Position numbers and translations under genes: made by a program. Positions 12,809-64,000 of a stretch of DNA of 64,000 nucleotides are shown piece by piece. The stretch comes from Marsupella aquatica. Taxonomy: Eukaryota > Plantae > Marchantiophyta. The stretch covers positions 248,001 to 312,000 of the forward strand of contig OZ316894.1 of assembly GCA_973895155.1 (NCBI GenBank). The letters are read 5' to 3'. Numbering within the stretch: position 1 is the stretch's first letter; each line of letters opens with the position of its first letter. The notes beneath the pieces are model-generated. The model saw nothing but the letters and a program-made list of their open reading frames with translations, made no database searches and had not been told where the DNA came from.

Positions 12809-12812
12809 TTTT

Positions 12813-12830: not shown

Positions 12831-12877
12831 GCATTTCTTAAGCCGTGAGATATGAAGTTAGAACGGAAGCGTAGGTA

Positions 12878-37626: not shown

Positions 37627-39530
37627 GGGGAGCTTTTTCGACAGTCGAACTGTACAATACTCTGGTATGTTAAACATCATTTGCAAATTCTGGATTAAGT
37701 TTGAATTGAACGGGTATACTAACGATGTTAGGAAAAAGGAGAAATTTTACTGTTATTAGGAAAAAACTCCTGGTATAAGGAAAATTTGTGCAATTTTGGG
37801 GATAAATTGTCCTCATATGTTCACTTTGCAGCATTGTAATTAAGCCAGGATAACAAGAATATATCCTCGCTAGCAATATTAACATCTACTATTGTCGAAT
37901 GATTTAGTGTATCAATTACCGAGTACACTCTCATATTTTGTATGTTCTATAGGGAGACTTATTGTTAGCGAAGATCACCAACAATATTAGACCCCAACAT
38001 TGATCACTCCAAAAACTTTACACATTAACCATTCATGGACAATAAAATAGATTCAAAGATCAAAAAAACTTTCATAATAAGCCGGATATAATTCTTGGCT
38101 AGGCATGAAAATCAAATTTTCATGCAATACAACTTTTCCCTACATCTTCAAAATATACCTCACCTCAGACAAGCTAAAGGCTGGTTGGTTGATTTCTCCT
38201 CGAACACTAACATTGAAGCGATAACAAAAAACCCAATATAAATGTTTGCACGGAACATATGAAAGACCTCTTGTATGGCGATTGAAGAAATTGTCACAGG
38301 AGCATGATGGAAAACAGCAAACTTGGACCCAATATCTTTTTGGTATCCTTCCATCTGTTTCGTGTGTTGCAACAAACAATTGTTTTCCCCAACCATTTCC
38401 CAACTCGATGATGTTCTCTGTCAACACTCGCATCTGCTCCTCCTCTGATGATTTGATGCGTTTCAAATGCTCTGACGAAAGAGTGACCCTCATGCAAATT
38501 GACTTCCCATTTCGACTTCAAAATCAATGCAATGGGTCATTCATGTTTACCATCTCACGAAATGTACTCACATTAATTTGTAACTCCATAGGTGAAGGGG
38601 CACTCACCGATGGGGAGACATTTGTCACATGTTCTCTTCCAGAGGGATGAGTTTGTATGCCTAAATCCAAGGAAAGCCCTTTCTCAATGAGGAACGTAAT
38701 TTCCTCACTAGCAAGACTGGTCCCTAGCATAATAGGCAAAACATTAGGAATTGGTGGTAAGGAAACAATGGAACGTCGTGGCTTTCCTCGAAAACAAACA
38801 TTATTTGGACAGAACCAAGTAACTCGAGGTACGTTTGATCCAAAAATCCTATGTGTAGCAAAAACCGCAATAGCCATGCGGCCCCTTGGGTCCAAAAATG
38901 ATACTTTTTTCACACAATTTTGACATTCCTCTCGAGTTGCAGACCTACCAAGAAACCCACGGCACTTTGGGCCGACCCCTTTGGAAGACATTCTACCTAT
39001 ATACCAACTCCCTTGGGGAACTCTCACTTCATGGCATGTCAATGGAGCACTTGACTCGGCAACGGGCGGTGGGACTACAGGTGTAGGGGAAGGAGTAGGA
39101 GTTGAACAAGTAGCGACGCATCTGGGCGGAGTCCAAAGGACCTCAAACGATTCACTCTCAGACAAATTGACAACCTCTAGTATCGAAGCTCCCTCGGGCC
39201 GATCCATTGATGTTGGCGGCCCTCTCGTATAATTAGGACTAAACTCAATAGAGTTTAGATTTCGTCTCCTTGACGTAGTCTTAGCAAGGGATGTAAGAAG
39301 AACTGTGTCATGTCGATGAGAGTCTTGGTCAGAGATTTTGTCACTCGCAATTCCCTTCCTCTTTGTTGATTTTGTTTGCAAATCACCATTTAATGGCCCA
39401 GTCCATAGAAGATCAAACTTCCCATTAGCTTCCATCAAATAATTGGTTACTTTCTCATGAGCGGAAGCAGAACCAACCATATCTGCATGGCAAAATGCAA
39501 GCTCAAAAATTGTTGGCCCTGTACCTCTAC
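37627..39530 (-). mobile_element. 3' part of a more diverged Mutator-like element with transposase C-terminus (38140-39530, frameshifted)
   Basis: RGTGPTIFELAF, QDSHRHDTV, WFCPN, SWIM finger CSC...PCKHLYWV, all homologous to 59500-60882; possible terminus GGGGAGCTTTTTCGACAG at 37627. Confidence 0.75.
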
Positions 39531-42500: not shown

Positions 42501-42811
42501 AGCCTGCTGGTAAGTGGTTGCGAGCACGGGTTGAGGACCTGTATCATCGAATCTGGATCGAAGGCGGACAGCACGAAGGCTTAGAAGCCCTTAAGCCGGG
42601 GTCGATCCTGCTATTGACTAAGGTACGTTCCGGCGGCAGAACACAAACCATACCTAGGAGGTGTCCGTATTTAGCAGTATGCGCACTTAGCGCTAGTTTA
42701 CGAGAATAAGGTGCATTACGTGCTTCCCTTCCTGCCCGAACCCTCAGATTTACGAGGGATGTGCCCGTCTAAGCTGAAGTCTGAGTTAAGGCCGCAGCCG
42801 ATGACGTGACA
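39531..42811 (+). mobile_element. Family B ORF-bearing LTR-like unit, 5' truncated
   Basis: Long ORF, then ~900 bp non-coding ending GACGTGACA; abuts the MULE transposase on the left and a family A LTR piece on the right. Confidence 0.75.
39532..41913 (+). pseudogene. Family B homolog of the LTR-encoded protein (one in-frame TGA at 40558-40560)
   Basis: GFEHLASLPW..EFVRNYD..TRLRGRSMSLT..IFGLP..NGFVMKTC..PRGEISAAQV aligns to GLEAFVRLPW..EFVGSWE..TRIYGKDFYLT..VFGLP..NGFFRNTC..PRAEIGKAQV; C-terminal coiled coil. Confidence 0.8.
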
Positions 42812-44292
42812 GCAAGCCGACAACCAAACGGAGCGGCTGAAGAAACAGGCCGTAGTATTTAAGTGCTTGGCTTCATCAGGCCCAACTCCAATTGGGGCAA
42901 CCAAGTTACCAGGAGTAGTACTGGCCGAAGGACAAGCCGCGCCACTCGCACCGGTGCCGGAAGAAAGGGGCAAGGGGAAGGGGCCAGCTGCCGAACCAGG
43001 GAAGAAGAAGAAACGAAAGCCTTATGGGTCAAGGAGTAATACGGCTCCTCAAGCCGTCGTGACCAAGGAGGTAAACCCGGCACCGACCTCAGGAAGGGTC
43101 ACGGCAAAGGATCCAACTGCCCTAGAAGGCGGGGATGGCAAAGCCGAGGCCAAGATACTCGATGATGAAGCCGGGGTACCGGATCCACCACTAGAGCATG
43201 CCGGGGAGGCCGTACCCGTATCAGAGGCCGTGGCCGATGCTGAGGCCGAAGTCGAGGGTGGACCCAATAAGGCCAATGGAGAGTTGGCTCGATCTGGAGC
43301 AGATAATCTATCAGAGGATGGGCCTACGGTAGTGGCTGCGGAGGAAGTGTTGGGGGCGTCCATTAAGGATCAGCCACCGCTACCATGACGATGGTGGGGG
43401 GCCGCTCCTTTTAAGGAGGGCGGACGTGGAGGGAGGAGGTGTGAGTGGGCAGGGCGGGCTCAGATCTCCAAGTTTAGAATTAGGATCAGGACCGGGAGGC
43501 GGCCCTGACATCTAGCTTAGTGGGATTGCGGATCCATTGGTAAGAGCAACACTTGTGCTCCTGCCTCGCTGTACATAGGTAGACTACAGTTAGGATAGAT
43601 TAGGCTTACGCTGCAAGGAATTGGGCGGATCCACTGCCAGGATAAGTATCTGTGTAGAGGGGAGTTCAGGGCCTTCTTCCTTAGCAAGTTTTTAGTGCAC
43701 CAGCATGGCTGGGATCAAGTAGTTGAGAAAGCTCTCGATTAGTTATACTATGACCCTTGTGTATATTCATGTTTCCTCATGCCTAAGAGATGAATAGAGT
43801 TGGCCTCACAACTTAGTTCGCAGATCTTGTGTATGAGAAGTACTGTTTGTATGGCAAGTGCATGGTATAACTCAGTCAAAAGGAGTCATTTTGCTATTTG
43901 TGTGTCGCATTAACTTGTTTGAAGATTGCCCACATCAACCAAGAAGGGAGTAAGCAAGGTAGTAAGAGTTGGATGTGTTGAGCTGAGAGAGGTCTTAGCG
44001 GCTTACCCAAGCCAGTTGGGGATCATTCCGGCGGCGAAATCCAAACATACCTAAAGGAAACCAAGAGAGGAGGACAAGGGAAGGCCTAGAATAGGCCGGC
44101 TACGTATCTCATGACCCGATGAAGGATCTGTCTAGTATATGTTAGTAAAATGTTAATAGTAATAGTAGTCATGAGGTTAGCAGCGTCCCATGCCGCTAAG
44201 CCGCGGAATTGGCCTCGCCAAGAGCGAAGCCTACGGGAATCGGCATGTGCAGGGGGGTTTCTTGGGTTTAGGGAGCCATGGGACGCACCACA
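42812..44292 (+). mobile_element. 3' fragment of a family A LTR
   Basis: Starts within ADNQTERL of the LTR ORF; ends GGACGCACCACA. Confidence 0.9.
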
Positions 44293-45862
44293 AGTGCCGA
44301 GCGCTCTTAAATATAACACTCGCAAGATTCAAAGAAGGAACCGGAAAAGAACGAGAACTTACTGATTCACGATGTGCATAGCTGCCTCAATTTCAATAAG
44401 AGATCCCTTGTCTCCCTTAAATATTGTGCAGAGCACTCGAGGATGGTATTTTGGATTGTCCGGGTTCTCCTCGGTAACAAGCGTCCATGAGTACAGCCTA
44501 TGATTTCCATCAAAGACAGAGAACATCTTATCCTTCAATACAAGAAAATCTGGGTCGGCCTCGCATTCAGCCTCAAACTTCTCGTTCTCCAATTGCCAAA
44601 TTGGATCCCATGACTCACGAATCTCCTGGGTACAGGTCAGAACAATTCCATTCTCATCCGTTGGCTGCACATAGAAACACATTCCTATGGATGAATTATA
44701 ACCCATACTGCAAAATGAGTCTTTCAGCTTCTCGATGGAAGAGCTGTCTTTCTGCAAAGTACGAACCACCTCCATGTGAACCAATCAGCATAGAGGGATT
44801 CGAGGCGGCTCCTTGTCAAATCCACGAGAATCCTTTCCAAAACACATGACATGTTTTGAGATGAGATCAGTCTCCACGAGTGCGCAGTCCAAAACATCCT
44901 AGATCACAATCGTGTCGAGGTTCTCCATCTTTCTACGCAGAGATTTAGGAACCAAACAACGCTAACAGAAGTAGGAGGCAACAATTTTGTGGAACGAGTT
45001 ACACGACGTGTATAAACTGAACTAGTAAACGAAGACTACGAGGATTCAGAATAAGCTCGCTCCTGGTCAGGAACTGCACTAACCCTCTGGATGAAGAGGG
45101 GAATACCTCCATCGTCTTCCTTCCAAAAGCGTATGAACTATTGTACAATGAAATTATGGAACTCTAATCAACTCTCAACGTGTAATATATTCTAGAAGGA
45201 GGGTGGAGTTCAGCGGAACTCTTCGATTAAAGCGAGAAGCTCGTAAGTTTGGCGGATTCCAACGTATGTATGCAGAGAACTTAATTAGCTAAATCAAGCG
45301 GTAGAAGAAGTGTAACACACACGGAACTCATAAGTTACTGTTAAATGTTACCGTTATGACCGTTTTCCTCCCTCACTTGGAATACTAGCGTCGGGCACTA
45401 TTATAAACACCGTCCCTTGAAGTAGATAATTGGGATGATTGTCATGGCAGTGCCCGGCGCTAGTAAAAACAACAGCTATAAAATAGGTCTACAATGGTGG
45501 CTCTAGTACATAAATTTCATCAAAACAACCCCCATATTTAAGGAAATGTCTATTGTTTTAATGGTTTTTGGGAAACATTACTTGCATCCTATACTAGCGC
45601 CCGACGCTAGTGAAAACTAGAATTTTTCATCCATAGTTCTAAAAGAGTTCACATTTTCATTGACCATTTAAATCCAATTACCTCATAGTATTGATGTATA
45701 CTGGAGAGTTTTTTCTATACTAGCGCCAGGCGCTAGTATGGAATATCGAGATTTGGGGCACATTATGTTTGAGGTATTTTAGTTAGCGCCATGCGCTACT
45801 CAAATTGTTCCAACTATACAATATCTTAGGGTCTGTTAAAGATTTTTGTGGTGTCTTTTTTG
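44293..45862. mobile_element. Mutator-like copy (outer): ParB exon and left half of the divergent promoter; interrupted by the complete copy
   Basis: Close nucleotide match to 55373-56936; FDGNHR in ORF 44359-44784; continues at 61553. Confidence 0.88.
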
Positions 45863-46265
45863 GGGAATTTACAAACGATAGCAAACAGATAATAGTAACA
45901 GCAAACTGCCATATATAATTGCAAAGTGCATAACGCGTTCGGCGCAGGTCCAACAAACGCCCATATAAGTTACAACCTGCAGGCCTAGAAATCTGATATA
46001 CAGAAGCCACGGTCGACCCCGGCTGAGGATTTCCAGTAAAACAAAAGTAGCGCTGGGCGCTAGCCAAGAACTGCAGGAAAAACTATGGAATTCCTGAAGA
46101 CAACATCTGGGAAAAGTCCTAACAACTAAGCCGAGGGCGACTCCATCCCAAAACATCAAAAGAGCTTAAGCAGCGCTCGGTGCTAGCTTAAAGTGATCAC
46201 CAAACTGAACAATGCGATGCCGTTCTTCGTGAAAAACCGGAGGAACAAGCAATAAGTGATTGCAT

Positions 46266-46727
46266 CTAGCTTTCAGAGTCGCAATCATCCTCCAATCCTG
46301 CCGCTTCTCTCCTCCAATTTTTCTTGAAACCAAGACCACGCAATCAAATGTATCTCTCAGAAGGACCCCGACGCACTGCCCTCGTATAACCTTCATTGGG
46401 AATGTTATTGTCCTTAAAGTCAACTCGCCCAAACATTTCTTGAACTCTCCTATCAATTGGCAGTACACCATCAACAGGAACAGCCTGATGAGACAAGAAC
46501 GTGCTTGCAAATGGGAGCAGAGGAGAATCGACAATCCATGGGATGTTGTTTTCTCCAGGACTAATAGCCTCATCATACGGTAGAGCGTGACGGTTCCGGA
46601 AAGTAGAGGTTTTAGTTTCCTCAGTCTCCATCTGTGACTCAAAAAAACTGAAATGGCTCTCTTCTGGACGCACACGAGAAGGGAGGAACGTTGCCTCCCA
46701 ATCCATGAGCTCACCGTTTCTCACCAT
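46266..46727 (-). pseudogene. Transposon ORF3 (premature TGA at 46344-46346)
   Basis: Homologous to 3646-4116, including GLEDDC beyond the stop. Confidence 0.65.
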
Positions 46728-49700
46728 GTTTAATGAATCCAATCTAGTGGCAACTTTCCCTTTGAAAAAATGCGAAAACTGTTTGCAAAAGGCCCGCAAA
46801 GGTTTGAAAATGGTCGTGGGTCCGAAAGATCTCGTCTGGGAGGAATGTCTCCCTCGAAACACCCGAAATGTATCTCCAAAAAAGGGGCCGCAATCGGGTG
46901 TCTGTCCCAAAATAGTCGCCTGTCCAAAAACTTGTGGTCCGCGACAAGTGTCGTCCTTGAAAACCGTCATCAAAAAGAGATCCTAAAATATCGTCCGAGA
47001 GAGATGCCGCCAACAAGAGATCCTAAAATGTCGTGCAAAAAAGTTGTCAACAAGAGATCCGAATGTCATCCAAGAGATCCGAAAATGTCGTCCAAATATA
47101 GCCGATGTGGGTATCTTTGGAAAACTAATGGACCTAAATGAAATGGCCGTTGGTATCCGAAACGTCTATTATACTATGTATTTACTACTATTTGTCTAAT
47201 TATGATGACCGTTGGTAGGACACGACAAAGACCAAACGGCCGTGTTACACAAAGAAGAGCTGGAAATATTTACTTTACGAATCACCATTTGGCGAGCGCC
47301 TAGCGCTTCTAAAAACACAAGGAATCAGACATTAATTTAGAAGGAGTCAATGAGAGGATTTGAATACAAGTTGGTACTACGCCAGGCGCTGGTAAAAAAT
47401 TACTCCCTAAACTCCTCAATACGTGTCACAATTCTGCAGATTCTGATTCGGAACCAGAATCTGAACTCTCGGATTTGTCCGTGGACACAACCTCATCATC
47501 TATGTACTGGCTGCGGGAGAAGTCATCAACAGAAGGATGTTTCATGAACATCCTATCAACACCCCTTCTTAACCGAAGACCTTTGTTTTCCCAGCAAAGC
47601 GTCCTTGTACTCTCGGCTTTCCTTGCGGCTTTCTCTGCATAGGAGGGAAGAACAAAAGGTTTTTCTGGTGTTTCTATGTTGTGTCTAGCAACCCTCCTTC
47701 ACAGTTTGAAACGTCTCCTTGCATTCCACTCTGACCTGATCAAACAAAATCCAGCAAGTTAGGAGCCTCGGTTTCATCAGGAGATCATCACTCTCGGTTT
47801 CATCAGGAGATCGACGAGGTTCTTCCTTTTCCTCCTCCGAGTCCCTTGTACCTTGTTCATCTCCATCTCCACTTTCACTGGACTCATCACCAGAATCAAA
47901 ATTGAGTACCGACCGAAGCTTATCTCGCTTCTTTCTGTCGGCAATAGGAACAGGTGGAGGTAAAACCACAATCTCTTTGGGAGACAACAAATCCATGAAA
48001 ACCTTTGAAGTGGTTTCAATAAATTCTTTTCTATGTTCTATCCCGAGCACAAACCTCCCGGAGAAGTCTCCAGCAATGAAGGAGCTTCCAGCCCCAACGG
48101 TCCAATCCATAAAAATATCACGAGGTTGGGTGACAAGCTCTATGACAGATTGCATAAAACCAACAGACAGGCGAGCATTTCCAAAAAATTCCATTTGCGG
48201 GAATGGATCGGATTTGAGAGAAGGGAGTCCGATCAAATTGGTGACCGAGGGGTCCTCACTAATGGAGAGTGGACGGAATTTAGGGTCTTTGGGAATTTTG
48301 CATTTCCCATTAATTCGACCAAATATGTCCAGCCTGAGGGTAAACATCTGCGGAAAGCAATCCCAAGTGTCAGTTGGCAACTCCAAGTTAAACGAGTTAT
48401 ATTTCAAAATGCGACATTGTTAAGAGTACATAATTACCTGACGGTCTGTCTTTGCAGCGTACATCGCGACAGACATTACAACATTATGCGTGCATGCATA
48501 CTGAAATTTTCTCGATTCCTGACAGGCAGCAATGACTTGAGACATGGGATTGTACTCCCCATTGTGTAGAATTGCTAGGAATCCATCATTTGATAGAAAT
48601 GGATCCATGGACTTGAAAAAAGATCTAGCCATGGAGTGATCTGGAGTGTTCCATTTAGGAACCTTCTTATCTATGATTGTTGGTTTGAACCCGGTCGGTA
48701 GGTAAATGAAACCGGCATCCACTCCAAACGATCTTTCTTTTCCTCCCCGCACAACACCCTTCTCTTTATATCTCGACTTAACGAGATCCTTCCCCCACTG
48801 CTCCACATTACTAACCCAATCAGGTTTTTCCCCCTTGTTGAAAGTCGAGTCAAAAAATTTGGATATGCTTGTCTCAACCATGGCATGATGAGACACTCTA
48901 GTTTTGAAGTTTCCAACTTCACGTTGGACACCAGATGCTGCAACACTCTCCCTTGTAGAAAGTCCACCTTCAATAGCTCGCTTTCGTTTCTTCCTAGTAC
49001 TTGTGGCGTCAACCGGAACTATTACTTTCCCCTTGTCGACAGGAGTAATGGGGTCCAATTGGGCTCCGGTGTTTGCCTCAGAAACTTCAGGTGTAGCATC
49101 TCCAAATTATATCCCGTTCCTTTAGTATCTCCTGTTCCCGCTGTATTAGACTTCCTCCCTCCTAAATTATCAATAGGTCCTAGTTAGAACAAGTAAATCC
49201 GGAGTATTGAAACAAGCTAGCGCCAGGCGCTAACCAAATGAAAATCACTTAGGTCTCAACAAAGGCCTAAGAATCTAGAAAGAAATGTGAATTCGAATGA
49301 CAGTTCTAGCCAGCACTAGGCGCTGGCCAAACCACGGAACATTATACTCACTTTTCCTCCCAGATTTCGTTGACTCACTTGGTGCTGCTAACTCCGCTTT
49401 TGCTTTCGCTCGAGGTTTTTGACTTCGGTCCACATGAACAATAGTCATTTCACAAATACTTGGCAAGTCTGTTGCAGACTTGTCTACATCGTCTATCAGG
49501 CCCTGCTTCATGTCGGACACAATTTTTGCTGGTATGTGGGACTTTGAAAGCTTGTGGAATGCATCTTTCTCCTTTTGATCAAAAGGAGAATCCCATCTAT
49601 CTGTATCTAGATACCATGGGCAGTGAGTTCTCTCCCATTCTGTCATAGGTCTCGGAGGAAATATGCCCTCCGCTGGGTACATGGAGTACAAATCAGCTAT

Positions 49701-50689
49701 AGCGTCATCCTCACTTATTGTAATCCACTTCATGAAAGTTGCAGGATATGCCCAAAAGTAATCAGGTTTGGTTACCTCCATGTGCATGTAGAACCTGTAA
49801 AGATACCTTTTAGCCCGCTTCTGGTTTTTTTGGGTGTAGTCTTCTTTGTCTGGATACTTTGAAGGCCACATCGTGTGAAAGAACTTACTCTTCACAGAAT
49901 CACCATATCTCTTGAATTCATTTGTAACAAACTGAACGAGATCATCAAACGAACCACAATTCCACTCTTCTAATCTAGTCGCGGGCATCGTCTGCTCTAC
50001 TTCACGCAGACATGAATGTAACATGCCGACAACAATTCCCTCTACACTATTCCAAGTGATCCAAGTATGACACCATTGTTTGACTGGGTCGTCGTTAACA
50101 CTTGCCGGGTGGAAAAACTGTCTCCGCAGCTCAGGATTGCAATGTGCCACAAGTAGGGTGCTTCGCAACTTTGGGTCTAGGGCAGAAACAACAGTGAACA
50201 ATCGGGCGCGGTCCATTGTACATACGACGGCGTCAGGCTTCTTCTCTCTCTTGTTTCTCTCTGTGACAACATACATTTCTGCACATGTACTAAGAAAATC
50301 TTCAAATTCAGGACTTAACAAGGGCGTAATTTTTGAGGACTTCACTGCCCAGTCTTTGGTTGCGTCCCTCATCATGGCCGCATGGCGTTTGGAAATCTCG
50401 TCCACCGACCAGGGACTCCCTTGAGCCTTGGCTGCCTCCATATCAAGCTTGAATTGGTGAGAATATGACTTTATCTTATTCTCACATAGAATGTAAACAA
50501 GAGCTTCCTGTGACATCTTCTTCGTATACCATGACCCCTTCCGAGTCTTTAGCCGAATGCTCTCAATCTTCTTGAAATTAGCTGGATCAATCAGTTTACT
50601 GTAATACTCAAGGTCATGCGCCAGAATTTGTTTGATTCTATCTGCATCGAGAATCCAGGATGGCTCAACAACGGCTTGGCCAAGCCTAC

Positions 50690-53600
50690 TGTGATGCCTA
50701 GACAGGAATCACTCGGCCGGTTAAGTGGGTAAAGCAGGAAGGCACCCTAGGAACACCTTAGTATAGTGACAAAACAAGGAAAATATAAACAATTAGGGGC
50801 AACCATGGAACCCGGGCAGAGGCCGGAGGTAAGGCTGAGGGTGAAAACCCGATTAGGGTTAGGGCGCGTTAAGCGTCGGCGGCTAGGAAGGATCAACGGG
50901 AAGAAGGACCGGCAGAGGAGAGGGGTAAGGAGCGCTTGCAGGAGATGGTGGCTCATTTGCGAGCACGAACTAGGCAGACGACTACGGGAGGCCAACTACT
51001 GTCAGCTGCTTAGGCAAGCACTCGGGGAGAGAGTAGATACCGACGATCAACCTAAGGAGGGTATGAGCAACGTCAATCAAGCGGCACATTTCTGGGGATG
51101 CCTGTTCGAACGGGCAACTGAGTACATCAAGACTTACGAGGACGAGGAGTCAGAAAGGGCAGCTCGAGAACGGCAGGAGCTCGCTCGATTGTGGGAGCTG
51201 CAGAAGACGGCTTTCTTAGGAGGCGAACTCATCAAGGACGAGTTCCTGTGGACGCCTACTTCCAATCAACTCGACGATCTTCTGTTTTGCAAGGACAGCG
51301 TCGTCGGCATCCGAGAGGCCATCAAGAACTGCAACGACATACACTGGGAATTAAAGGGTAGCACGGAAAGGTGGACCCAGGCAACGGTGCTAGGAGAAAC
51401 CTCCACGGCAGCAGAGATGAAGAGGAAGGGAGCCGTCAACGATGAAGCCACCCCGGCAAAAAGAACGAGGTCGGCGGCACCAAAGAAGCCAGCCGAGCAG
51501 CAGAGCAGGAGGCAGGGAGAAGCCGAAGAGGAGGAGGTCGATCCCATCAAGGCCATTCCAACCAGGGATGACACCTGGAAGGGCTGGGCGGCAACCCTAC
51601 CGGTGGAGGTGCAACTACATTTTGCACGGGAGGAGGATGCATGCTTTACGGCCATGCAGACCAAGAAGTACCAAGGCTTCATGGCCGGATCCGGCTTGGA
51701 GGCCTTTGTAAGATTACCATGGCTGAAGCCGGAGGTACCGGAGTCAAACCTATTAGAATTCGTGGGGTCATGGGAACCCGAGACCAATTGCACGAGGATA
51801 TATGGGAAGGATTTCTATCTTACTCCCAAGGTGATTGCCGAAGTGTTTGGCTTGCCGATGGGCAATAAGACCAAAGTTGATACCAGGAAGACCTTGCCTG
51901 ACAAGGAGTTCCGGTCGTTCCCCGGGCCATCAACGAAGAATGGCTTCTTCCGGAACACCTGCACCAACCCGCACATAGGAGAGATGATCGACTTCTTGCG
52001 GGTGACCATGCATTGTAACTTGCCGAGGGCAGAGATCGGCAAGGCACAGGTCTATCTGGCAGAAAGGCCAGACCCAAGCCGGGACTACAATGGGTACCTC
52101 CTCAACCAATTGAAGAAGATCTTAAAGGAGGAGCAGCAGGTCATCGGCATGGGGAGCGTGTCGCGGCTTGGCTATCACATGCCGCTGTTGTGCCGGTATG
52201 CCAGAGGTCAGACTTTTGCCCCGGTACTTCCCCTGCAGGTAAGGGCACCCGAGGAAGCTCCAACGCCGAGGCCGTTGGCTGAGAAGCCTCAACCACCTGT
52301 TAGTCCTATGATCGAGCAGGTGTTTAGGCCCAGGAAGGAAGACTTGCCGATGCAGCAACCAGGCATGCAGAGTCTGCTGAAACTACTGGAGAAAGAAAAG
52401 AAATCGGCATCGGCAACAACAACGGCAACGGCAACAATGCAGGACACTACTACAGAGGTAGGCCGACACCGGCTCACAAGAGAAAACCCCTTTGCTGGAG
52501 ACAAGGAGAGAATCAGGCCGGAATCCAAGCCAGGTGTTCGAATGTACGTGGGAACCTCAAGCTCCGAATCTGAGGCAGAATTGCCTGAAGCTCCTACCGA
52601 GGAAGAGGAGAGGGAGAAGCCGGAAATCCAAGAGGTAGAGGAGGCAGTGGAGGGCTGCAGCCATGATAATTCCGGCTATGGGTCGGACCATCACGTTCCA
52701 GGAGTAAGGACCTGTGGCCGGTTTGTCCCCACACTTCCAAGGGTAGTGCGAGGGGACCCCAACCAGCAGAGTAGCCCTGAGTCTCCCCCACCAGATGTTG
52801 CTCCCCCGAGCTTCGACGGCATAAAACAGACGGTGCAGGAATTTCAGGAGCGAATCAAGCAGGAGGAAGAGGCCGCCCTGGCTAAGGAAAAGGATTTACC
52901 AGGAGGAGATTGGCCGGAGGACATCAGGCGGCTAGCCGAAAAAGGAAGCAAACCTCTAGCCACGATTGAAGAGATCCGCAGGACGGCTTGGGAGCAGAGG
53001 CCACGATGGGCGATGCCGATCACTTCTACTTACTCCACCTACGCTAAGAATAGAGCCATGGAGTATGGTGAGATGTGTGGGGAACTTGCGCTCGGCATCT
53101 TTGGAGAGGAGTTGGAGGTAGGACCCTTTTTCCATAGGGAGCAGTTGGAGAAGCACCAATTAGAAGAAGCGGTGGCTTTAGAGAGAAGCAAGAAGGACGA
53201 GGTCATTCGGCGGCTTAGGAGGATGGGAGCCGAGATTGAAGATCTAAGGGCGGCCAAGAAAGCCCAAGATGAACTGCGGATTAAACGACATGAGCTGAAC
53301 ATCATGCAGGGGCAGTTGGACGCCGCGCAGGCTGATAATCAGAATATCAAGGATAAACTGACTCAGACGCAGGAAGAGTTGGCCGACACGATCAAAGAGA
53401 GGGAGAAGTGGAAGCAAGAGCTGAAGAATACAGAGGAGGCCCACATAACAGCCAACAGCCGGGCCATGGCGGAGACCCAAAGAAAGGAATGGGCGTTGAA
53501 AGGGGAGCTCGAGAAAATCCGCGGAGCCCTTGAGCAGAAGGAGGTCGAGTTAGGGAAATCCTATCAAGGGATTATGGCGCTGCAGCAGGAGCTTGCGTCC

Positions 53601-55319
53601 CTGACGGCCAGCTTCAAGGCCGACCTAAGGGAGAAGGACGAGATGCTCGAACAGACTTACGCCAAGATGAACCAGATGGAGTCTGTCATCATTGCAGAGC
53701 TCGACAAGGAGCTAAGAGCAACCCAGGAGGAGAAGGCTACCTTGAAGAAGGAATTGGAGGAAGCCCACAGGGAGCAGGAGGAGGCCAAAAACGAGCTGGA
53801 GGGGGCACGTAAGGACCTGGATGAAACCCAAGAGGAGTTGGAGGAAATCACGAGGAAGATGGAGAACCTACAGCGGCGGGCCGACAACCAAACAGAGCGG
53901 CTGAAGAAACAAGCCGCAGTATTTAAATGCTTAGCTGCAGCAGGTCCATCTCCTGTTGGGACAAACCAGTTACCAGGGGTGGTAATTGCCGAAGGACAAG
54001 CCGCGCCACCTGCACCAGTGCCGGAATTAAGTGGGAAGGGGAAGGGACCCGAGCCACCAACGAAGAAGAAGCGGAAACCTTCAGGGTCAAGGAGTAATAC
54101 GACTTCACAGGCCGTGGTGATCAAGGAGGTAGACCCAGCACCGACCCCAGACAGGGTCACGGCTAAGGATCCAACTACCCTAGGGGAAGGGGAAGCCGAA
54201 GCCGAGGGAGTGGCTGAGGCCGAAGCCGTGGGTATTGTCGAGGCCGGTGTCGAGGCTGAAGCCAAAGGTGGACCCAGTCAGGCCGAGGGAGAGTTGACTC
54301 AGTCAAGGGCAGGTAATCTGTCAGTAGGCGGGCCAACGGCAGTGGCTGAGGAGGAAGTGTTGGGGGCGTCCATTGAGGATCCACCACCGGTGTCGTGACG
54401 GTGCAAGGGCGCCGTTCCTTTTAGGGAGGGCGGACGTGGAGGGAGGAGGCGTGAGTGGGCAGGGCGGGCGCGGATCTCCACGTTTAGGATTAGGATCAGA
54501 ACCAGGAGCGGCCCTGACACTTAGCTTAGTGGGATTGCGGTCCCACTGGTAGGAGCAACACTTGTGCTCCTGCCTTGCTGTACATAGGTAGATTCAGGCA
54601 AGTAGATTACTGTTAAGTAGATTAGGCTTACGATGCAAAGAATGGCGGATCCACTACCAGGATAAGTACCTGGGCAGCGGGGAGCTCAGGGCCTCTTCTT
54701 TAGCAAGTTTTTAGTTTGCACCAGCCGGGCTGGGATCAAGTAGTACGAGAAGCTCTCGGTTAGTCATACAATGACCCTTGTGTATATTCATGTTTCCTCA
54801 TGCCTAAGAGCTGAATAGAGTTGGCCTCACGGCTTAGTTCGCAGAACTTGTGTATGAGATGTACTGTTTGTATGGCAAGTGCATGGTATGACTCAGTCAG
54901 AATGAGTCATTTTGCTATTTGTGTGTCGCATTAACTTGTGTGAAGAGTGCCCACATCAACAGAAGGAAGGAAAGTAAGCAGGGGAGTGAGAGTTGGATGT
55001 GTCGAGCTGAGAGAGGTCTTAGCGGCTTAACCAAGCCTATTGGGGATCATTCCGGCGGCGGAATCCAAACATACCTAACAAGACGGAGGGGAAGACAGGG
55101 GAAGACAGGGGAAGGCCTATATTAGGCCGGCTACGTATCTCATGACCCGATGAAGGATCTGTCCAGTATATGTGTGTAAAATGTTAATAGTAGTAGTAGA
55201 AGGTTAGCAGCGTCCCATGCCGCTAAGCCGCGGAAACGGCCTCGCCAAGCACGAAACCTGCGGGAATCGGCTTGAGCTGGGGGGTTTCTTGGGTTTAGGG
55301 AGCCATGGGACGCACCACA
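50690..55319 (+). mobile_element. Solo LTR of family A (4630 bp) with 5-bp TSD
   Basis: CCTAC|TGTGATGCC...GCACCACA|CCTAC. Confidence 0.96.
50805..54398 (+). CDS. Intact 1197-aa LTR-encoded protein: Arg-rich N-terminus, plant-mobile-domain/Athila-ORF1-like core, long coiled coil, KKKRK, acidic tail
   Basis: Open frame from GCAACCATGG; EFVGSWEPETNCTRIYGKDFYLTPKVIAEVFGLP resembles the PMD W.PET...T..D/V....GLP pattern; no evident transmembrane segment. Confidence 0.85.
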   Translation: MEPGQRPEVRLRVKTRLGLGRVKRRRLGRINGKKDRQRRGVRSACRRWWLICEHELGRRLREANYCQLLRQALGERVDTDDQPKEGMSNVNQAAHFWGCLFERATEYIKTYEDEESERAARERQELARLWELQKTAFLGGELIKDEFLWTPTSNQLDDLLFCKDSVVGIREAIKNCNDIHWELKGSTERWTQATVLGETSTAAEMKRKGAVNDEATPAKRTRSAAPKKPAEQQSRRQGEAEEEEVDPIKAIPTRDDTWKGWAATLPVEVQLHFAREEDACFTAMQTKKYQGFMAGSGLEAFVRLPWLKPEVPESNLLEFVGSWEPETNCTRIYGKDFYLTPKVIAEVFGLPMGNKTKVDTRKTLPDKEFRSFPGPSTKNGFFRNTCTNPHIGEMIDFLRVTMHCNLPRAEIGKAQVYLAERPDPSRDYNGYLLNQLKKILKEEQQVIGMGSVSRLGYHMPLLCRYARGQTFAPVLPLQVRAPEEAPTPRPLAEKPQPPVSPMIEQVFRPRKEDLPMQQPGMQSLLKLLEKEKKSASATTTATATMQDTTTEVGRHRLTRENPFAGDKERIRPESKPGVRMYVGTSSSESEAELPEAPTEEEEREKPEIQEVEEAVEGCSHDNSGYGSDHHVPGVRTCGRFVPTLPRVVRGDPNQQSSPESPPPDVAPPSFDGIKQTVQEFQERIKQEEEAALAKEKDLPGGDWPEDIRRLAEKGSKPLATIEEIRRTAWEQRPRWAMPITSTYSTYAKNRAMEYGEMCGELALGIFGEELEVGPFFHREQLEKHQLEEAVALERSKKDEVIRRLRRMGAEIEDLRAAKKAQDELRIKRHELNIMQGQLDAAQADNQNIKDKLTQTQEELADTIKEREKWKQELKNTEEAHITANSRAMAETQRKEWALKGELEKIRGALEQKEVELGKSYQGIMALQQELASLTASFKADLREKDEMLEQTYAKMNQMESVIIAELDKELRATQEEKATLKKELEEAHREQEEAKNELEGARKDLDETQEELEEITRKMENLQRRADNQTERLKKQAAVFKCLAAAGPSPVGTNQLPGVVIAEGQAAPPAPVPELSGKGKGPEPPTKKKRKPSGSRSNTTSQAVVIKEVDPAPTPDRVTAKDPTTLGEGEAEAEGVAEAEAVGIVEAGVEAEAKGGPSQAEGELTQSRAGNLSVGGPTAVAEEEVLGASIEDPPPVS

Positions 55320-56191
55320 CCTACACGAAGAGATGCAGCGAGTTAGAGTCGAAGTACAATTTATGTATAACCAGCGCCGAGCGCTCTTAAATAGAACACT
55401 TGCAAGATTCAAAGAAGGTACCGGAAAAGAACGAGAACTTACTGATTCACGATGTGCATAGCTACCTCGATTTCAATAACAAATCCCTTGTCTCCCTTAA
55501 ATATTGTGCAGAGCACTCGAGGATGGTATTTTGGATTGTCAGGGTTCTCGGTAACAAGCGTCCATGAGTACAGCCTATGATTTCCATCAAAGACAGAGAA
55601 CATCTTATCCTTCAGCACGAGAAAATCTGGATCGGCCTCGCATTCAGCCTTAAACTTCTCGTTCTCCAATTGCCAAATTGGATCCCATGACTCACAAATC
55701 TCCTGGGTACAGGTCAGAACAATTCCATTCTCATCCGTTGGCTGCACATAGAAACGCATTCCTATGGAGGAATTGTAACCCATACTGCAAAACGAGTCTT
55801 TCAGCTTCTTGATGGAAGAGCTATCTTTCTACAAAGTACGAACCACCTCCATGTGAACAAATTGGCATAGAGGGATTCGAGGCGGCTCCTTGTCAAATCC
55901 ACAAGAATCCTTTCCAAAACACATGACATGTTTTGAGATGAGATCAGTCTCCGCGAGTGCGCAGACCAAAACATCTTGGATTGCAATCGTGTCGAGGTTC
56001 TCCATCTTTCTACGCAAAGATTTAGGAACCAAAACAGCGCTAACAGAAGTAGGAGGCAGCAGCTTTGTGGAACGAGTTACACGACGTGTATAAACTGAAC
56101 CAGTAAACGAAGACTGCGAGGATTCAGAATAAGCTCACTCTTGGTCAGGAGCAGCACTATACCCTCTGGATGAAGAGGGGAATACCTCCAT

Positions 56192-57149
56192 CGTCTTCCT
56201 TCCAGAAGCGTACAAACTATTGTACAATGAAATTATGGAACTCTAATCAACTCTCAACGTGTAATATATTCTAGGAGGGTGGAGTTCAGCGGAACTCTTT
56301 GATTAAAGCGAGAAGCTCGTAAGTTTGGCGGATTCCAAGTATGTATGCAGAGAACTTAATTAGCAAAATCAAGCGGTAGAAGAAGCATAACACACACAGA
56401 ACTCATAAGTTACCGTTAAATGTTACCGTTATGACCATTTTCTTCCCTCACTCGAAATACTAGCGCCGGGCGCTATTATAAACAACTTCCCATGAAGTAG
56501 ATAATTTGGATGATTGTCATGGCAGCGCCCGACGCTAGTAAAAATAACAGCTATAGAATAGGTCTGAAATGGTGTCTCCAGTAAATAAATTTTGTGAAAA
56601 CAACCCCATATTTGAAGAAATATATATTGTTTTAATGGTTTTTGGGAAACATTACTTGCATCCTATACTAGCGCCCGACGCTAGTGATAACGGGTATTTT
56701 TCATCCATAGTTTTAAAATAATTCACATTTTCATTGATCATTTAAATCAAATTATTCCATAGTATTGATGGATATCTGGAGGGTTTTTCGTATACCAGCG
56801 TCTGGCGCTGTATGAAATATCAAGATTTGGGGCATATTATGTTTGAGATATTTTAGTTAGCGCCAGGCGCTACTCAAATTGTTCCAACTATACAATATCT
56901 TAGAGTCTATTAAAAATTTTTGTGGTATCTTTTTTGGCATTATGTACGTGTCTGACATCCGGACTTATCGGGGAAAAACGACAAAATTCATTTATGGCGC
57001 CAACGGATCCTATGTCGACTATGTTTTATGTCTTACACAAACGGATATGTTAACGTGAAGTTCCCATGTTCGACTGATATAAGCTCCATATTACCATAGA
57101 CTTTTCTTCCTCGAAACATTACAGCCCTCGTTATTTGTTTTCGATTGCA
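56192..57149. promoter_or_regulatory. Divergent promoter region with five TAGCGC-NNN-GCGCTA palindromes
   Basis: Lies between the two ATGs; palindromes at 56461, 56523, 56669, 56796 and 56858. Confidence 0.7.
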
Positions 57150-60100
57150 ATGTCTCGGTCCATCGTTCTATCCTGATTCGGGACTGGGGATATTGTGACC
57201 ATCCCCGTCCCTGTGGAAGACACGTACAAGCAGGTCCGGGAGAGATACCTTTGCGAGAGATTTGATTTGAAGATGAATGATATTGAGGCCATTCTTCGAG
57301 AGCTCAAAACCAGTGATGACATTGAAGATGCAACAACATTCAATGTGGATGATGGTGAACGATTTTGGCATCTATATGCAGGGATTTTGTACTCACTTCG
57401 AGTAAGACACCATGAAGGACCGTCCAGTGTCCCCCAAGTTCCATTTGATGTTGTCGAGATTTCTTCTAGTGAAGATGGGGATCACACTCCAAGTCCTACG
57501 TTGAAAATGAAAGTCCCGCAACATGCTATTGTTAAAGGTGAGACTCTAGGAAGCTCCAACCAGTTGGAGGTCGTGTATCGGCGCAGTGTGATTGATACGT
57601 TACTCAAATCCACTGGTCATAGCGAGTTATCAAGGTTCATATCAGCGGGTGATTTCAGACATGAGCAAGTCTCCTGTCTGCCAACTAAGTATAATGGGAA
57701 CGTCGTGTTTGAATTGCCACCAATTGACAAGATGCTCTCTAAAGGCTTTAGGCTTAGGGACATGGACCGTGCCAAAGATTGCTACATTTGGACACGCATA
57801 TTTCCAACTACCGCGAACGTCCAGCCAAAAAAACTTTGGCAATTCGGTAAGGTTACCTGTACGGGATTCATTGAATGTCGGAACAAGTCTTGCGAGTACT
57901 TCCAAAGGAAGAATAAGGCAAATGCTAAGGCATGGCAGGGTACTCCAAAGCTTAGTGGTCAGTATGCTGTCGGATCTTTTATCGAAGAGGGCGGTGTTGT
58001 GTGTCATTATTGTGATCAGATTCCTTTTTGTGTCAAGTACTTCCCTGCCCGGTTGCTCTATATGTACCTGCAAGTATTACTTGATGCGGACACATGTAGT
58101 CATATGTCCCACCTGGCAATTCATATATAGGTGAGCATAACCATCCAGGTAGAAAAATCTTCTGTAGGAGTGCGAAGAAGATGGCTGAGGATTTAATTTA
58201 AAAAAATCATGAAGCCAATCCTCTGGCAAAACCAGTTGGGATCTTGAATTCTGCTATAGGCCTGGGTCCATAGTGAAAGCTATCTGCGAACATGTTGACG
58301 ACATGGTTGATATTGAAGAAACTGAAATATGGAAGTCTCTGATGGTACTTTCCACTCCCCATAAGTTTGCATCTCTTTGTCGAAGCGTTAGGATAGACCA
58401 AAAGGGTCGGGGTGAACTTGATTTTCTATCGCAAATGCAGAAGAAGATTAACCTGTCGTTTCTCCAGAGGTATTTGCTCCCAGGTCAGGGATGTCAAGAG
58501 GACAGGCCTCACATCTTTAAAATGACCACGAAGGGTCACGGTTCCGGTGTGGATCTTTTGAGATAGATGCAACCTGGTGGAAGACTCGAAGGAGCCTGGG
58601 TCAGTTTCGATGTCATGCAACATATCACAACCGATTGGTTTACTTTTAGCGCACATGTCTACGACCATAACTTCCGTGCACTTTGTACAATTTTCACATG
58701 CGAGTTGAAAGGTGAAGACACTGAGTCTTTCGGAAAGGCTTGGAGAGTTATGATTGAGGTTTGCAAGGAGAATGGATTACATGAGGTTGTCATCCAAGGG
58801 TTTATGGCGGACAATGCATAAGCTGGATGGAATGTTGTGCGGAATGTTTTTTTGGTGGACACCCAGACCCGGAGAGGGAGCGCTCTGATGCATTTCACTT
58901 TTATCAATCTTTCCATCGGCATTCCAAGGAAGGAGTACTCGAAGAATGTCAATCGGAACATCGGAGACTTTGGGAGAAACTAAGAAACGCTCCAACGTTT
59001 GTGGTAGCCTATCGCGTGTCCTGAGAGATTGTGGTTTGGTGGCAATCAGGAAATTGTGTCCCTGGAAAGCTCATGATGCTACAAAGCTGGATATCCCGCT
59101 GGGTTGTTTGATGGTGCTAGTGGGGAAATTTTATTCAAGTGGTATGACAACCATCTCCTCTCTTGTCTTTCATTTCCATCAACTTTATATTAGCGCCAGG
59201 CGCTGGTATGATTTGCTCGTATTTGAGTCCAACATGTCCATAAAGTTCCAGAATCATACTTGCAATTGTATTTCACGTATGTTATAAATACTTGTCGGTG
59301 TCAGCGCCGGGCGCTGGTAATACAATGCTAGTACTGATTATTGCATTTGGACTATGGCAGAGCAAAAGCGCAGAAGAAGGTGCCTTGATTCCCAACTGTA
59401 CAGGGTCAGAATCAAGGCATGCGTCTATGAAAGCCTGGGCTACAAAGAAAAAAGTTGGTCTTTTTGAAGCATGCAAAGTGGACCAAAACCGAGCCTTGTC
59501 TCAAGTTGCGGGATACAGTGCATATTGGAAAGGGTTGAACAGAGGAAAGGGACCAACTATATGGGAATTGGCGTTCCGTTCCGCCGATCAAGCAGGTTCG
59601 CCGAGGTTATTTGAAGATGTGACCAACATGCTTCTTTCCAACGCGGCGGACTTTGATTTGGAAAGAAGTACTCCCCTTAACGGAGATATTGTGACCAAGT
59701 CAATGAAGAGAAAGGGACATGCAACTGGGACTGTCTCTCCACAAGACTCCCACCGGCATGACACCGTTCTCATAACCACACCAAATACTCGTGGTTTGAA
59801 AAGGAAAAACCTAAACAGAACTGACTTTGCCTCCATTCCCTCAAATTCTAATGATCCTGTGACAAGAGTGGTGAATCTCTCTGGTATGGACACATCAGAT
59901 GGTGATACTGATTCACTGGACAATACCCCTCAAACAACCCGTACAACAAGATCCACAAAACCTCCACTCAGTGCACCAGCCTCACTTCAAAATCCACTTC
60001 CACGGACGATTGTGCTAGAAAAGGATGTCCCTCTGGGGCAGTGGCAGCTGCGACGGACGTCCAAGTATGGAGCAGGTCCCCAGTGTAATGGGACACTCAA

Positions 60101-60882
60101 TGGGAGTTCTGATCACAATGAGTGTCGAAATCGTATCAAGAAGGTTGGCTTCCATTCGTCTGACGGTGTTGTTGGAATTGTTGTGAAGGGCCATCGTCTC
60201 TTCAGGGGCGAACCAATCTCCGGAATGATTTGGTTCTGCCCAAACCAAACCTGTTATAAGAGTCGTCCGTGTCGTGGTGTTCATCAGCTTCCTCCTCTTC
60301 CTGAAATTTTGCCTGTTTTGAACGGTACGAGCCTATCTCCTTCTGAAATCACGTTCCTCGAGGAGCAAGGACTTGTCTTAGCCCGAATCGAGTCGATCTA
60401 TGCCATCTTTGTTTGACCTCAGGATAAATGTGAACGTGTTCCCAGAAACGATAAGGTTTTTGGAGCCAAATGTCCGGCTGGGTAGTCGGAATGGGAGGAA
60501 CTCAAGACCTCGGTCTAATCTCACTGTGGGTCACACTAAGCGAATGGAGTCTGCACGACAAGAAGAGATGAGTTTGGATGGGGAATGGAATGTTCGGACT
60601 GGAAATGCTTTTGGAAAACAATTTCAAATTTGAACCCATGAGAACCTTCGATCACCAAGCACGTACTTCATGCAAATCTGTATCTTCCCTGCTTGCTCCT
60701 GTGAGGACTTCTTCCTATGACATTCGCGTGGCAAGTCGTACATGCCTTGTAAACATCTATACTGGGTGTACATAAATGTTTTCAAACTTGAGGTTGAGGA
60801 GTCGACTCTTTGTAGCCAACCAATTTGGACTGTGGGCGAAGTCAGGCTTGTCTTGGAGAGGCAGAACTTGAATGGCTTATAA
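57150..60882 (+). pseudogene. MULE/MuDR-like transposase with Cys-rich N-terminus and C-terminal SWIM finger; several stops and frameshifts; intron ~59141-59360
   Basis: VSFDVM, GFMADNA-AGWNVVRNVF, ERERSDAFHF, PNCTGSESRHA, CSCEDF..PCKHLYWV. Confidence 0.82.
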
Positions 60883-62550: not shown

Positions 62551-64000
62551 TTATAGAACATTTCGAGGAATCTTCAAACCTCTGGCCGCCATGTTTTCTT
62601 CTTTCATTCCAGATTTAAAACCATACATTGCAGAATTTGCATACTGCCAATGTTGAGCGTTCTCACTAAACCCTGGATCTCGTTCCCATGTCTTAGTGGA
62701 CATGAAGCAGTTTAGATATCGTGCACTCTCAGTCACATCAAGTTTAGAGTGTTTAGGCCTCCACCATTCGACTGGAAACATTGGAGCATATTTTTGAGGC
62801 AGAGGAGGGTTTGTTGGAGATGTAGTTGGGACTTCATGCTTAGGGTCCACCAAACCCAAAGCTCTCACCAACCAGAAATGACCTCCACCATTTTTATTCT
62901 CCCAGTCATCCTTGGGTCGAAGAAATACAAAGTTCCCTTCACGAATATCCTGTAGGGGAATCCACCGTCCTTGTTCTCTCTCAGCTCAAGATCCAACAAA
63001 TGGTGCTGCTTGATCTTCCATCTCTTCCAAGACCTCATTTTGAAGAGCCGTCATCTCTGCATTCTCCTCATCTTCACTTGGAGGACTACTTTGTTCCGGT
63101 TGGTTGACCTTGTAACCAGTGCCGTGGTTAGTCTTAGGCCAAAATCCATTTTTCAAGGGAAATTGAGTACTTCCCTCCCCTTCTAGTGCGAGCCCATTTG
63201 TCAACAACTCCACAATTCTCTCCCAATATTTCACAAGAGGAAATCTTTCCTTATATGCTATAGATGTCTCATCAGTGCAACTCCTTCTCAAAAAATCAAG
63301 GTACTTGTTAAGAAATGGGATAATCTCTTCAGATTTTTTGTGTATCTCTCCAATGGATTTAGCTAAGGGCTCTCCACTAGGTAAAAGAAGAGAATTTGTT
63401 GTCAGATCTGTTGCCCAAATGCACCTTCCTCCAACTGGAGCCCAAGCTTGCTTTACATGGGACTTATATTGAAATATTGGTACATTATCTCTCATAGAGA
63501 AAAGAAATGACACGGGTTTTGAGTGACCTTGAATATCTTTAACTTTGAAAGTTTGAAGATATTCTTTGTAAGATGCAACTTCTTGTATCAATCTAGAAAC
63601 TGGATGAATGCTCTCACATTCCCAAACCTCTGCCATAAGAGCAAGGAGAGTTGCAACTTCCTTGTGCTGAACTTGATATGATACCTTCAAAAAGAGTGCA
63701 TCAACATCTTCGTGCATATGACCAACCATTAGAAAAGACATTTGAACAGTTTCAAATACTCCTCTACTCACAAGCTCACTACAAAATGCCATGACAGTCT
63801 GGTTTTTGTTATCCTTTGCTGAGTTATCCATTTGTAGTGTTAGGTGCCTTGGCAAGGGCTTGGAAGATGGACTGCCTTGTTCCCCATGCATGTCCCCTCC
63901 TTGATCCTCACCATGTTGGGTGGAGACCGTCTCCGTTTGACTCTCGGCTGCATCTTCAGAACCAATATACCTATTCATTGGAATACTTGATCTTTGGTTC
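62551..64000 (-). pseudogene. Sola-like DDE transposase fragment (frameshift near 62980; runs off the window)
   Basis: LTLQMDNSAKDNKN...VFETVQMSFLMVGHMHEDVDALF. Confidence 0.65.

Follow-up and report, generated by a model that had tools for sequence, protein, structure and literature searches.

A giant LTR of a liverwort Ty3/gypsy family that holds a gene under selection, with a predicted VANC-type domain

We examined a 64,000-nucleotide stretch of Marsupella aquatica DNA (contig OZ316894.1, positions 248,001 to 312,000; referred to here as the window, with positions counted from its first letter) and observed that a 4630-bp unit at 50690-55319 is a solo long terminal repeat (LTR) occupied for the most part by one sense open reading frame (ORF). 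That this is a giant LTR holding a selected gene we consider practically certain. The solo LTR belongs to a non-chromovirus Ty3/gypsy family, and the central domain of the encoded protein very probably has the VANC/PMD/Athila-ORF1 fold, as judged from a predicted model.

The LTR, its copies and the gene inside it

The solo LTR, its ORF and the other copies of the family in the window are as follows.

50690-55319, forward strand: solo LTR, 4630 bp, TG..CA, with the target-site duplication (TSD) CCTAC at 50685-50689 and 55320-55324
50805-54398, forward strand: intact ORF, ATG to stop, 1197 aa, 77.6% of the unit
54399-55319, forward strand: non-coding LTR tail, 921 bp, kept in five copies
54409-54432, forward strand: decayed tract resembling a polypurine tract (PPT), directly 3' of the ORF stop, candidate relic of a former LTR boundary
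8147-12808, forward strand: 5' LTR of the gag-pol copy, a full copy; ORF with three stops
12813-12830, forward strand: primer binding site (PBS), TGGCGCTAGATGGAGGGG, after 12808
13520-18820, forward strand: broken gag-pol with zf-CCHC, a protease-like motif, reverse transcriptase (RT), RNase H and integrase; integrase C-terminus gone
18815-18820, forward strand: PPT-end remnant GAGCTA
18821-23492, forward strand: second full LTR copy; ORF with one stop; right flank inside the inverted copy; no TSD with 8147
23493-24441, reverse strand: older inverted LTR copy, 5' 946 bp only, 84% identical; one stop
1-2100, forward strand: older LTR copy, 3' part, with two frameshifts
42816-44292, forward strand: older LTR copy, 3' part

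The solo copy begins with TGTGATGC and ends with GCACCACA, and its terminal inverted repeat matches at 7 of 8 bases. Besides it, the window holds five further copies of the LTR. The four copies that have a 5' end open at the identical TG and the five that have a 3' end close at the identical CA, with differing flanks. The solo LTR sits at the splice acceptor of a minus-strand host gene, and the reading phase agrees across the site: the right flank holds an exon, a GT donor at ~55441 and an AG acceptor coinciding with the TSD, and the left flank is in the matching phase. The TSD and the phase-matched split of the host gene therefore indicate that the solo LTR is a clean insertion.

A preliminary description of this DNA had called the unit an LTR. 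This was borne out by the shared ends and the TSD, and because a PBS and gag-pol in gypsy order come after the 8147-12808 copy. The order is RT-RNase H-integrase, with an RVT_1-type RT. We take the PBS to resemble the 3' end of a plant tRNA-Asn. An additional RNase H domain marks the Tat clade (PMC6317226); no PF00075 or PF13456 was found in the protease-RT-RNase H-integrase span, the region after the integrase being deleted here, and in the nearest locus among the relatives described below (L010) pol passes straight into the PPT. By this mark the element does not belong to Tat.

The gag-pol copy has the PBS and the domains reported for it but is not an intact element. Its flanks are CAAGC and CTCCT, with no TSD, and its two LTRs diverge by 3.0%. 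At GDLVLL the integrase meets the second LTR, about 54 aa short. Among 120 relatives examined, 95 align to the integrase end; 86 of these 95 extend by at least 30 aa (median 54), 81 with GP[YF]. Before the second LTR only the 6-bp PPT remnant is present, and L010 has the full tract right after pol; the GAGCTA-TGTGATG junction also opens the LTR of another relative, L001. A deletion of ~200 bp would have removed the integrase tail and most of the PPT, and a further rearrangement would have joined the right end of 8147-23492 to the inverted copy.

These defects bear on whether the unit could be a separate non-autonomous element, or whether the true LTR could be its last 0.9 kb with the ORF internal. 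The only gag-pol copy lacks a TSD and a full PPT, a PPT-like tract lies 3' of the ORF, and L001 has precisely the internal layout. However, four copies open at the same TG in unrelated flanks and none opens at the post-ORF tract, the TSD of the solo copy lies in a host gene whose phase matches on both sides, the 8147 copy is succeeded by a PBS, and the PPT end of relatives is identical to the 6 bp preceding the 18821 copy. We regard both forms of this explanation as very improbable. Read-contig depth in four sequencing runs was roughly even over the whole 4.6-kb unit and lower in the flanks; as depth is not copy number, the evenness does no more than hint that there is no separate class with short LTRs. 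One sequencing-run contig diverges from the window sequence at 8147.

The retention of the ORF in a solo LTR, also claimed earlier, was confirmed at 50805-54398. Among the window copies the ORF is open in the solo copy only; the 8147 and 18821 copies carry three stops and one stop. The accompanying claim that indels preserve the frame did hold, as all nine in-ORF indels are multiples of 3 (3, 21, 6, 6 and 48 bp in the 8147 copy and 3, 21, 6 and 60 bp in the 18821 copy, relative to the solo copy). The seven indels outside the ORF in the two full copies are each of 1, 2 or 10 bp, and none is a multiple of 3.

We further estimated dN/dS against the solo copy (Nei-Gojobori, with bootstrap limits). 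The five other copies gave 0.41, 0.40, 0.33, 0.33 and 0.45, with the upper confidence limit below 1 in all five, in agreement with the proposed selection on the protein. For the inverted copy (0.33, confidence interval 0.23-0.47) selection was evident, but the statement that it differs largely at synonymous sites went too far, since 59.5 synonymous and 77.5 non-synonymous positions differ. By part, dN/dS was 0.19-0.21 in the central domain, 0.18 in the N-terminal domain (against the inverted copy), 0.22-0.39 in the coiled coil and 0.47-0.67 in the C-terminal tail.

Constraint was absent in codons 1-87, where 6 synonymous vs 32 non-synonymous codon differences were counted. A stretch of 87 codons was open by chance in 11% of simulations, and two homologs (P0134 and P0144) start at the position of M87. 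The working protein likely starts at M87 (51063), with about 1111 aa, and codons 1-87 are likely a 5' leader. The N-terminal basic stretch, which the first reading had taken for a nuclear localisation signal (NLS), falls in these seemingly unconstrained codons, and that assignment found no support.

We also observed that the solo LTR is a mosaic. Positions 53690-54590 (~3000-3900 of the unit), at the coiled-coil end and the C-terminal tail, differ by 11-20% from the other full copies, and the remainder by 2-5%. This pattern suggests recombination between subfamilies.

The protein and its predicted fold

Four parts can be told apart in the protein ahead of the C-terminal tail.

51063-51419, forward strand: conserved N-terminal domain, aa 87-205, without known family; common to P0134 and P0144 (shuffle tests)
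51420-51470, forward strand: bipartite-NLS-like stretch KRK..KRTR, also in the inverted copy
51570-52223, forward strand: central domain, aa 256-473, predicted VANC (PMD/Athila-ORF1-related) DNA-binding fold
53145-53939, forward strand: predicted long coiled coil, ~aa 781-1045, proline-free and charge-rich; weak Pfam coiled-coil rows below cut-off

The KRK..KRTR stretch is NLS-like by the pattern that we take NLSs to have. The highest mean Kyte-Doolittle hydropathy over 19 residues is 0.82, so that no transmembrane segment is found, as had been stated, and the protein is not envelope-like in this respect.

Sequence searches returned little. A Pfam scan of the ORF gave nothing except the weak coiled-coil rows, and hmmscan with PF10536, PF03078 and PF20167 gave no match for the window ORF pieces at E <= 10. 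Word-index protein searches with the ORF gave no match, a metagenome scan with its N-terminal half left 0 of 29 candidates confirmed, PDB sequence searches with the central domain and with its alignment gave no match, and the N-terminal domain was without match in the ESM atlas. A full HMMER scan with aa 256-492 (E <= 0.001) found 20 proteins, none of them with PF10536, PF03078 or PF20167. Eighteen are plausible; P0139 and P0140 were dropped as chance matches (HA and Ig domains). Ten matches were looked up, and the three that carry names are all from the liverwort Calypogeia fissa. The homolog P0147 has the same layout as the window protein: N-terminal domain, central domain, disordered linker and coiled coil.

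The structure of the central domain was predicted from a 26-row alignment, and the best of five models had pLDDT 72 and pTM 0.69; a single-sequence fold reached pLDDT 32. In Foldseek the top row for this model was the crystal structure of VANC21 bound to DNA (prob 0.87, TM 0.48, E 0.28), with the other rows shown at prob 0.05 or less. VIA-align to VANC21 gave Z 9.2, with 207 residues aligned at 4.0 rmsd. A VIA pass over 48,161 chains, made without Foldseek, again placed VANC21-DNA first (Z 8.9, rmsd 4.2, 207 of 237 aligned; next 2.1), and this was the sole chain with Z >= 5. The predicted model thus has a VANC-type fold. Against a library of viral folds nothing reached E <= 0.001; the best row had prob 0.82 at rmsd 20.6.

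The ESM atlas features point, as a lead, to PF20167 (0.89/0.88) and PF03078 (0.87). The ORF of one relative, L012, matched PF20167 at E 2.5e-4 and 21.4 bits, below the cut-off of 45; it is the only one of eight relatives tested to do so. PF20167 is akin to Athila ORF1 (PMC11728184). The kinship with plant mobile domain and Athila extra ORFs put forward in the preliminary description is therefore upheld at the level of the fold, through the VANC21 match, and not by hmmscan with PF10536 or PF03078. That description had invoked the MAIN/MAIL1 silencing factors; the closest solved relative, VANC, lifts silencing and does not impose it.

VANC21 is a DNA-bound anti-silencing protein (PDB 9lnj/9lnk; PMC5735166). 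VANC proteins bind short family-specific motifs and strip methylation from their own transposon family (PMC5735166). The PMD of MAIL1/MAIN is reported to be structurally like the VANC domain (10.1101/2024.09.27.615353, PMC13547354), and VANC and the Athila domain have been modelled as coiled-coil pentamers (PMC13547354).

Relatives and the path of the gene into the LTR

A metagenome scan with the integrase gave 67 loci (labelled L below), and 24 of these were placed in an integrase tree together with nine proteins and the window. Among the integrase matches that carry names are liverworts and a fern, and the named rows of the tree are of liverwort and fern origin. A profile of the window family matched downstream sense ORFs in 6 of the 67 loci. 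A second profile, built from eight such ORFs, added L006, L008 and L011 and matched the window ORF at E 2e-4 to 4e-4; compared with the window-family profile, the profile of the relatives' ORFs gave prob 97.3. The window's integrase clade comprises 13 loci, and the ORF is present in all ten that have at least 700 bp downstream, the other three being too short.

The position of the ORF varies among these relatives. L001 has the order pol, purine tract, ORF, second tract ending GAGGGGAGCTA, 990-bp TG..CA LTR and PBS, and in L012 the second tract is likewise 3' of the ORF. Eight loci (L003-L008, L010 and L011) have the same tract motif directly after pol, and it is absent after the ORF in all three of them that reach that far. 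In L003 and L006, TGTGGGA comes right after the post-integrase tract and TCCCACA stands before the PBS. Because the post-tract bases are the reverse complement of the pre-PBS bases (9/9 and 11/12), the ORF of these two loci, 470-640 bp after the TG, lies inside the LTR; neither contig covers a whole LTR. We take the PBS of L001, L003 and L006, TGGCGCCGCTGCC, to be of the Athila type. In the integrase tree the eight tract-after-pol loci and the window are on one side of a branch (89/88), with the internal-ORF locus L001 in the sister group and L012 outside.

These layouts suggest a simple route. The ancestor would have had the order pol, tract 1, ORF, tract 2 and 1-kb LTR. Plus-strand priming would have switched once to the upstream tract 1, shifting the left edge of the LTR upstream, so that the ORF would lie in U3 and be copied into both LTRs and every solo LTR. 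This shift of the boundary is the likely way in which U3 acquired the gene. The 921-bp tail, nearly as long as the L001 LTR, would be what was once the entire ~1-kb LTR and would contain the promoter for genomic RNA and the poly(A) site. The tract at 54409-54432 is similar to those behind the integrase in L001 and L009, a resemblance only; a tract pattern allowing four mismatches was matched in the 42816 copy (43401) and not in the solo copy. We presume that Athila, too, has a double PPT.

A second, distant family in the window shows the same layout.

39540-42811, forward strand: ORF homologous at ~28% identity, with one stop at 40558, and an 898-bp tail

Its tail ends GTGACA, and another copy (24442-25123) ends at the same base. 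Compared with the tail of the first family it scored 112.5, above 300 of 300 shuffles. This unit is likely an LTR whose 5' end has been lost. The N-terminal domains of the two families showed no significant direct similarity; they link only via P0134 and P0144, by segments picked after inspection. We also noticed a motif, TTCCGGCGGC..GAA..CAAA..CATACCTA, in the tails of both LTR families (~55050-55080 and 42628-42658), the proteins of which are ~28% identical. This motif is likely a cis-element.

Function, insertion sites and neighbouring features

With modest confidence, and from the predicted fold, we favour the reading that the protein is a sequence-specific anti-silencing (or trans-activating) factor for its own family, encoded in U3. 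It would oligomerise via the coiled coil, would bind words of the AAGCCG/GCCGA type repeated across its own element, and would block or remove repressive marks, as VANC does on VANDAL transposons.

The candidate words were evaluated by their ranks and against synonymous-codon shuffles. AAGCCG was the top hexamer in the LTR (z 7.0) and ranked third of 2080 in the disjoint internal region, vs 102, 445 and 1880 in other window DNA. It exceeded the shuffles in the ORF (14 vs 4.4) and in pol (5 vs 1.0). GCCGA was above the shuffles in the ORF, gag and the protease-RT piece (pol p 0.07), and showed no excess in family 2, in the methyltransferase host element described below or in a pentatricopeptide repeat (PPR) gene of the window. 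Relatives have other words: AGCGCT (L001), TCCGGA/ATCCGG (L006, L007) and AATTGG (L012). A top-3 word of one part was in the top 10 of the other part in five of eight ORF-bearing elements and in none of eight others. As a separate observation, TCCGGA is extremely dense in L003, L006, L007 and L008, with 32-57 copies per 3-8 kb in coding and non-coding DNA.

Several points weigh against this reading. The identity to VANC21 is 9% and the Foldseek E value 0.28, the other four central-domain models had pLDDT 40-62, and a shared fold shows no function; the MAIN/MAIL proteins, with the same fold, act at host genes. L003, L004 and L005 (three of the eight ORF-bearing elements) fail the word replication, and the controls of that test may hold non-element DNA and are mutually related. 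The tandem PPR gene, too, has more AAGCCG than its shuffles (7 vs 1.7), and GCCGA reaches 4.9/kb in family 2. In the solo LTR, 28 of 30 GCCGA sites are in the ORF, unlike VANC motifs, which cluster in non-coding tandem arrays (PMC5735166). As to the architecture, LTR placement comes from terminal repeats in two relatives only, the key branch (89/88) is not starred, and the window's row in the tree was labelled tract-after-pol from a 6-bp remnant.

The 28 of 30 GCCGA sites in coding DNA would also suit a protein that acts on RNA or particles (packaging, export, movement or a non-membrane env-like role) via its coiled coil, the word bias being mutational (e.g. slower decay of some CG contexts). 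Descent from a sense ORF between pol and the 3' LTR is an env-like position (PMC7264820), and Athila-domain proteins are modelled as coiled-coil pentamers (PMC13547354). However, the protein is without a transmembrane segment and its sole structural match is a DNA-bound protein. A mutational bias is hard to reconcile with words that vary between related families and include the non-CG AATTGG (L012), or with family 2, which is in the same genome and shows no excess over codon shuffles. We judge such a role improbable.

Expression of the ORF would most simply come from the 3' LTR copy. With the ORF in U3, genomic RNA from the 5' LTR starts downstream of it and therefore carries the 3' copy only; the doubled dose proposed in the preliminary description would consequently depend on a second promoter. 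One may lie within the initial ~370 bp of the LTR, and solo LTRs could then express the ORF. The sole hint of it is TATAAA at 50784, ahead of the unconstrained leader, and we hold expression from solo LTRs as tentative at best.

It is somewhat probable, and compatible with an anti-silencing factor, that only the ORF copy in the 3' LTR of full elements is functional (cf. MMTV sag), with 5' and solo copies passive and no dose effect. Through the boundary shift the ORF would come to lie in U3, ahead of the putative former promoter, with just 115 bp before the first ATG; three of the four copies having a 5' end carry stops; and lineage selection needs the inherited 3' LTR copy alone. Against this, M87 could be preceded by a promoter, with TATAAA at 50784, and by a 5' untranslated region made up of the unconstrained codons 1-87, and in MMTV sag can be transcribed from several promoters within U3 (PMC12789967).

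A wider proposal is that the polypurine-tract switch, in the whole non-seed-plant gypsy lineage, turned solo LTRs into self-contained VANC-type genes that would de-silence full-length copies in trans, via their own family's word. We find this rather doubtful. If true, solo-LTR formation, the host's main route of retrotransposon deletion, would leave a counter-defence gene behind.

The element can be set beside known systems. With VANC, from the Mutator-like VANDAL DNA transposons, the window protein shares the predicted central-domain fold over 207 residues, an adjoining coiled coil, encoding by the element, and candidate family-specific short words accumulated in it. Unlike VANC, to which it is 9% identical and is likened by predicted fold and not by activity, it comes from an LTR retrotransposon of a non-seed-plant lineage, lies inside the LTR, has an extra N-terminal domain, and has its words dispersed in coding DNA. 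The extra ORFs of Athila/Ogre/Retand (PF03078, PF20167, PF10536, Transposase_28 PF04195) are likewise sense ORFs 3' of pol in non-chromovirus gypsy elements, with a coiled coil and no enzyme motif, and the atlas and one homolog point to PF20167/PF03078; reviews describe them as internal (PMC7264820, PMC11963269), whereas here the ORF is in the LTR, without a Pfam match and without the Tat-type extra RNase H. MMTV sag and HIV nef lie wholly (sag) or partly (nef) in the LTR and are copied into both LTRs (PMC12789967), but the proteins are unrelated, and here a 3.6-kb ORF fills 78% of the LTR of a plant element without env. MAIN/MAIL1/MAIL2 (PMC5418596; 10.1101/2024.09.27.615353) have a reported PMD-VANC structural kinship and motif-linked chromatin action, but are angiosperm host genes, and the window protein has no PF10536 sequence match.

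Non-chromovirus gypsy elements with LTRs of ~5 kb, and with extra ORFs that have PMD, Transposase_28 or Athila ORF-1 domains, have been described before (PMC6317226). PMD-A is gypsy-encoded, and anti-silencing by transposon-borne PMDs has been proposed, not shown (PMC5418596). In the open-licence literature we came across neither a plant element whose LTR contains a complete gene nor a report of a VANC-fold protein encoded in a gypsy LTR of bryophyte type, and the available text of PMC7466625, PMC6673714 and PMC1142308 holds no precedent. The role of extra ORFs in plant gypsy elements is described as an open question (PMC7264820, PMC11963269). For one lineage a specific, testable answer can now be offered: a predicted VANC-fold domain, a candidate word, and relatives with other words. 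If true, retrotransposons of plants without seeds would join the DNA transposons of eudicots as users of sequence-specific anti-silencing. Both states of the architectural change, gene internal and gene in the LTR, are caught, with a simple route between them. Since solo LTRs are treated as non-coding, LTR genes may be missed or called host 'hypothetical proteins'.

The gene split by the solo LTR is part of a repeated element that has introns and encodes an N6/N4 DNA methyltransferase domain (44293-50689 with 55320-56937, and 3700-7800 on the reverse strand). PF01555 scored 35.3 bits, above cut-off, at 4971-5600, and more weakly at 47688-48419. An upstream exon carries an FDGNHR motif, presumably ParB-like, without a Pfam match. 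Two copies are 93% alike and a third is 60-70% alike in protein. If a land-plant transposon does carry a 4mC/6mA methyltransferase, this would merit separate attention. We considered 42816-44292 and the solo LTR as a pair flanking a methyltransferase-carrying LTR element and rejected this, since the solo LTR breaks that gene with a TSD.

The insertions at 44292/44293 and 55319/55320 are independent. They occupy the same intron (~120 bp) in two copies of the methyltransferase element, at sites separated by 53 bp, and a third LTR-family junction, 8146/8147, adjoins a diverged paralog. Three insertions at one site had been considered; these were reduced to two, as the 8147 junction is not at the homologous place. 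A target preference of the LTR family is possible. The protein might accordingly be a DNA/chromatin tether steering integration into particular repeats: every identifiable junction in the window falls in another repeat, those other than the three above being in family 2 or the own family, and the predicted fold is a DNA binder. However, insertion into other repeats is a general feature of plant genomes, the element itself and not its targets carries the enriched word (3.9/kb vs 0.6/kb in 44293-50689), and the ORF is separate from the integrase. We consider a tether unlikely.

Further features of the window lie apart from the LTR family. Two copies (~41% identity) of an uncharacterised ORF pair without a Pfam match are at 38143-39530 (reverse strand) and 59244-60860 (forward strand); nearby are a cysteine-rich ORF (57177-58130) and a DUF7869 transposase-like ORF (62986-63999). 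The PPR gene at 28722-32228 (reverse strand) is intact and of the PLS-class PPR-E-DYW type; its repeats arose by recent tandem duplication of a 303-bp unit, present in 6.2 copies that are 88% alike. At 35462-36692 a 411-bp unit occurs three times in tandem, with 99% identity between the copies.

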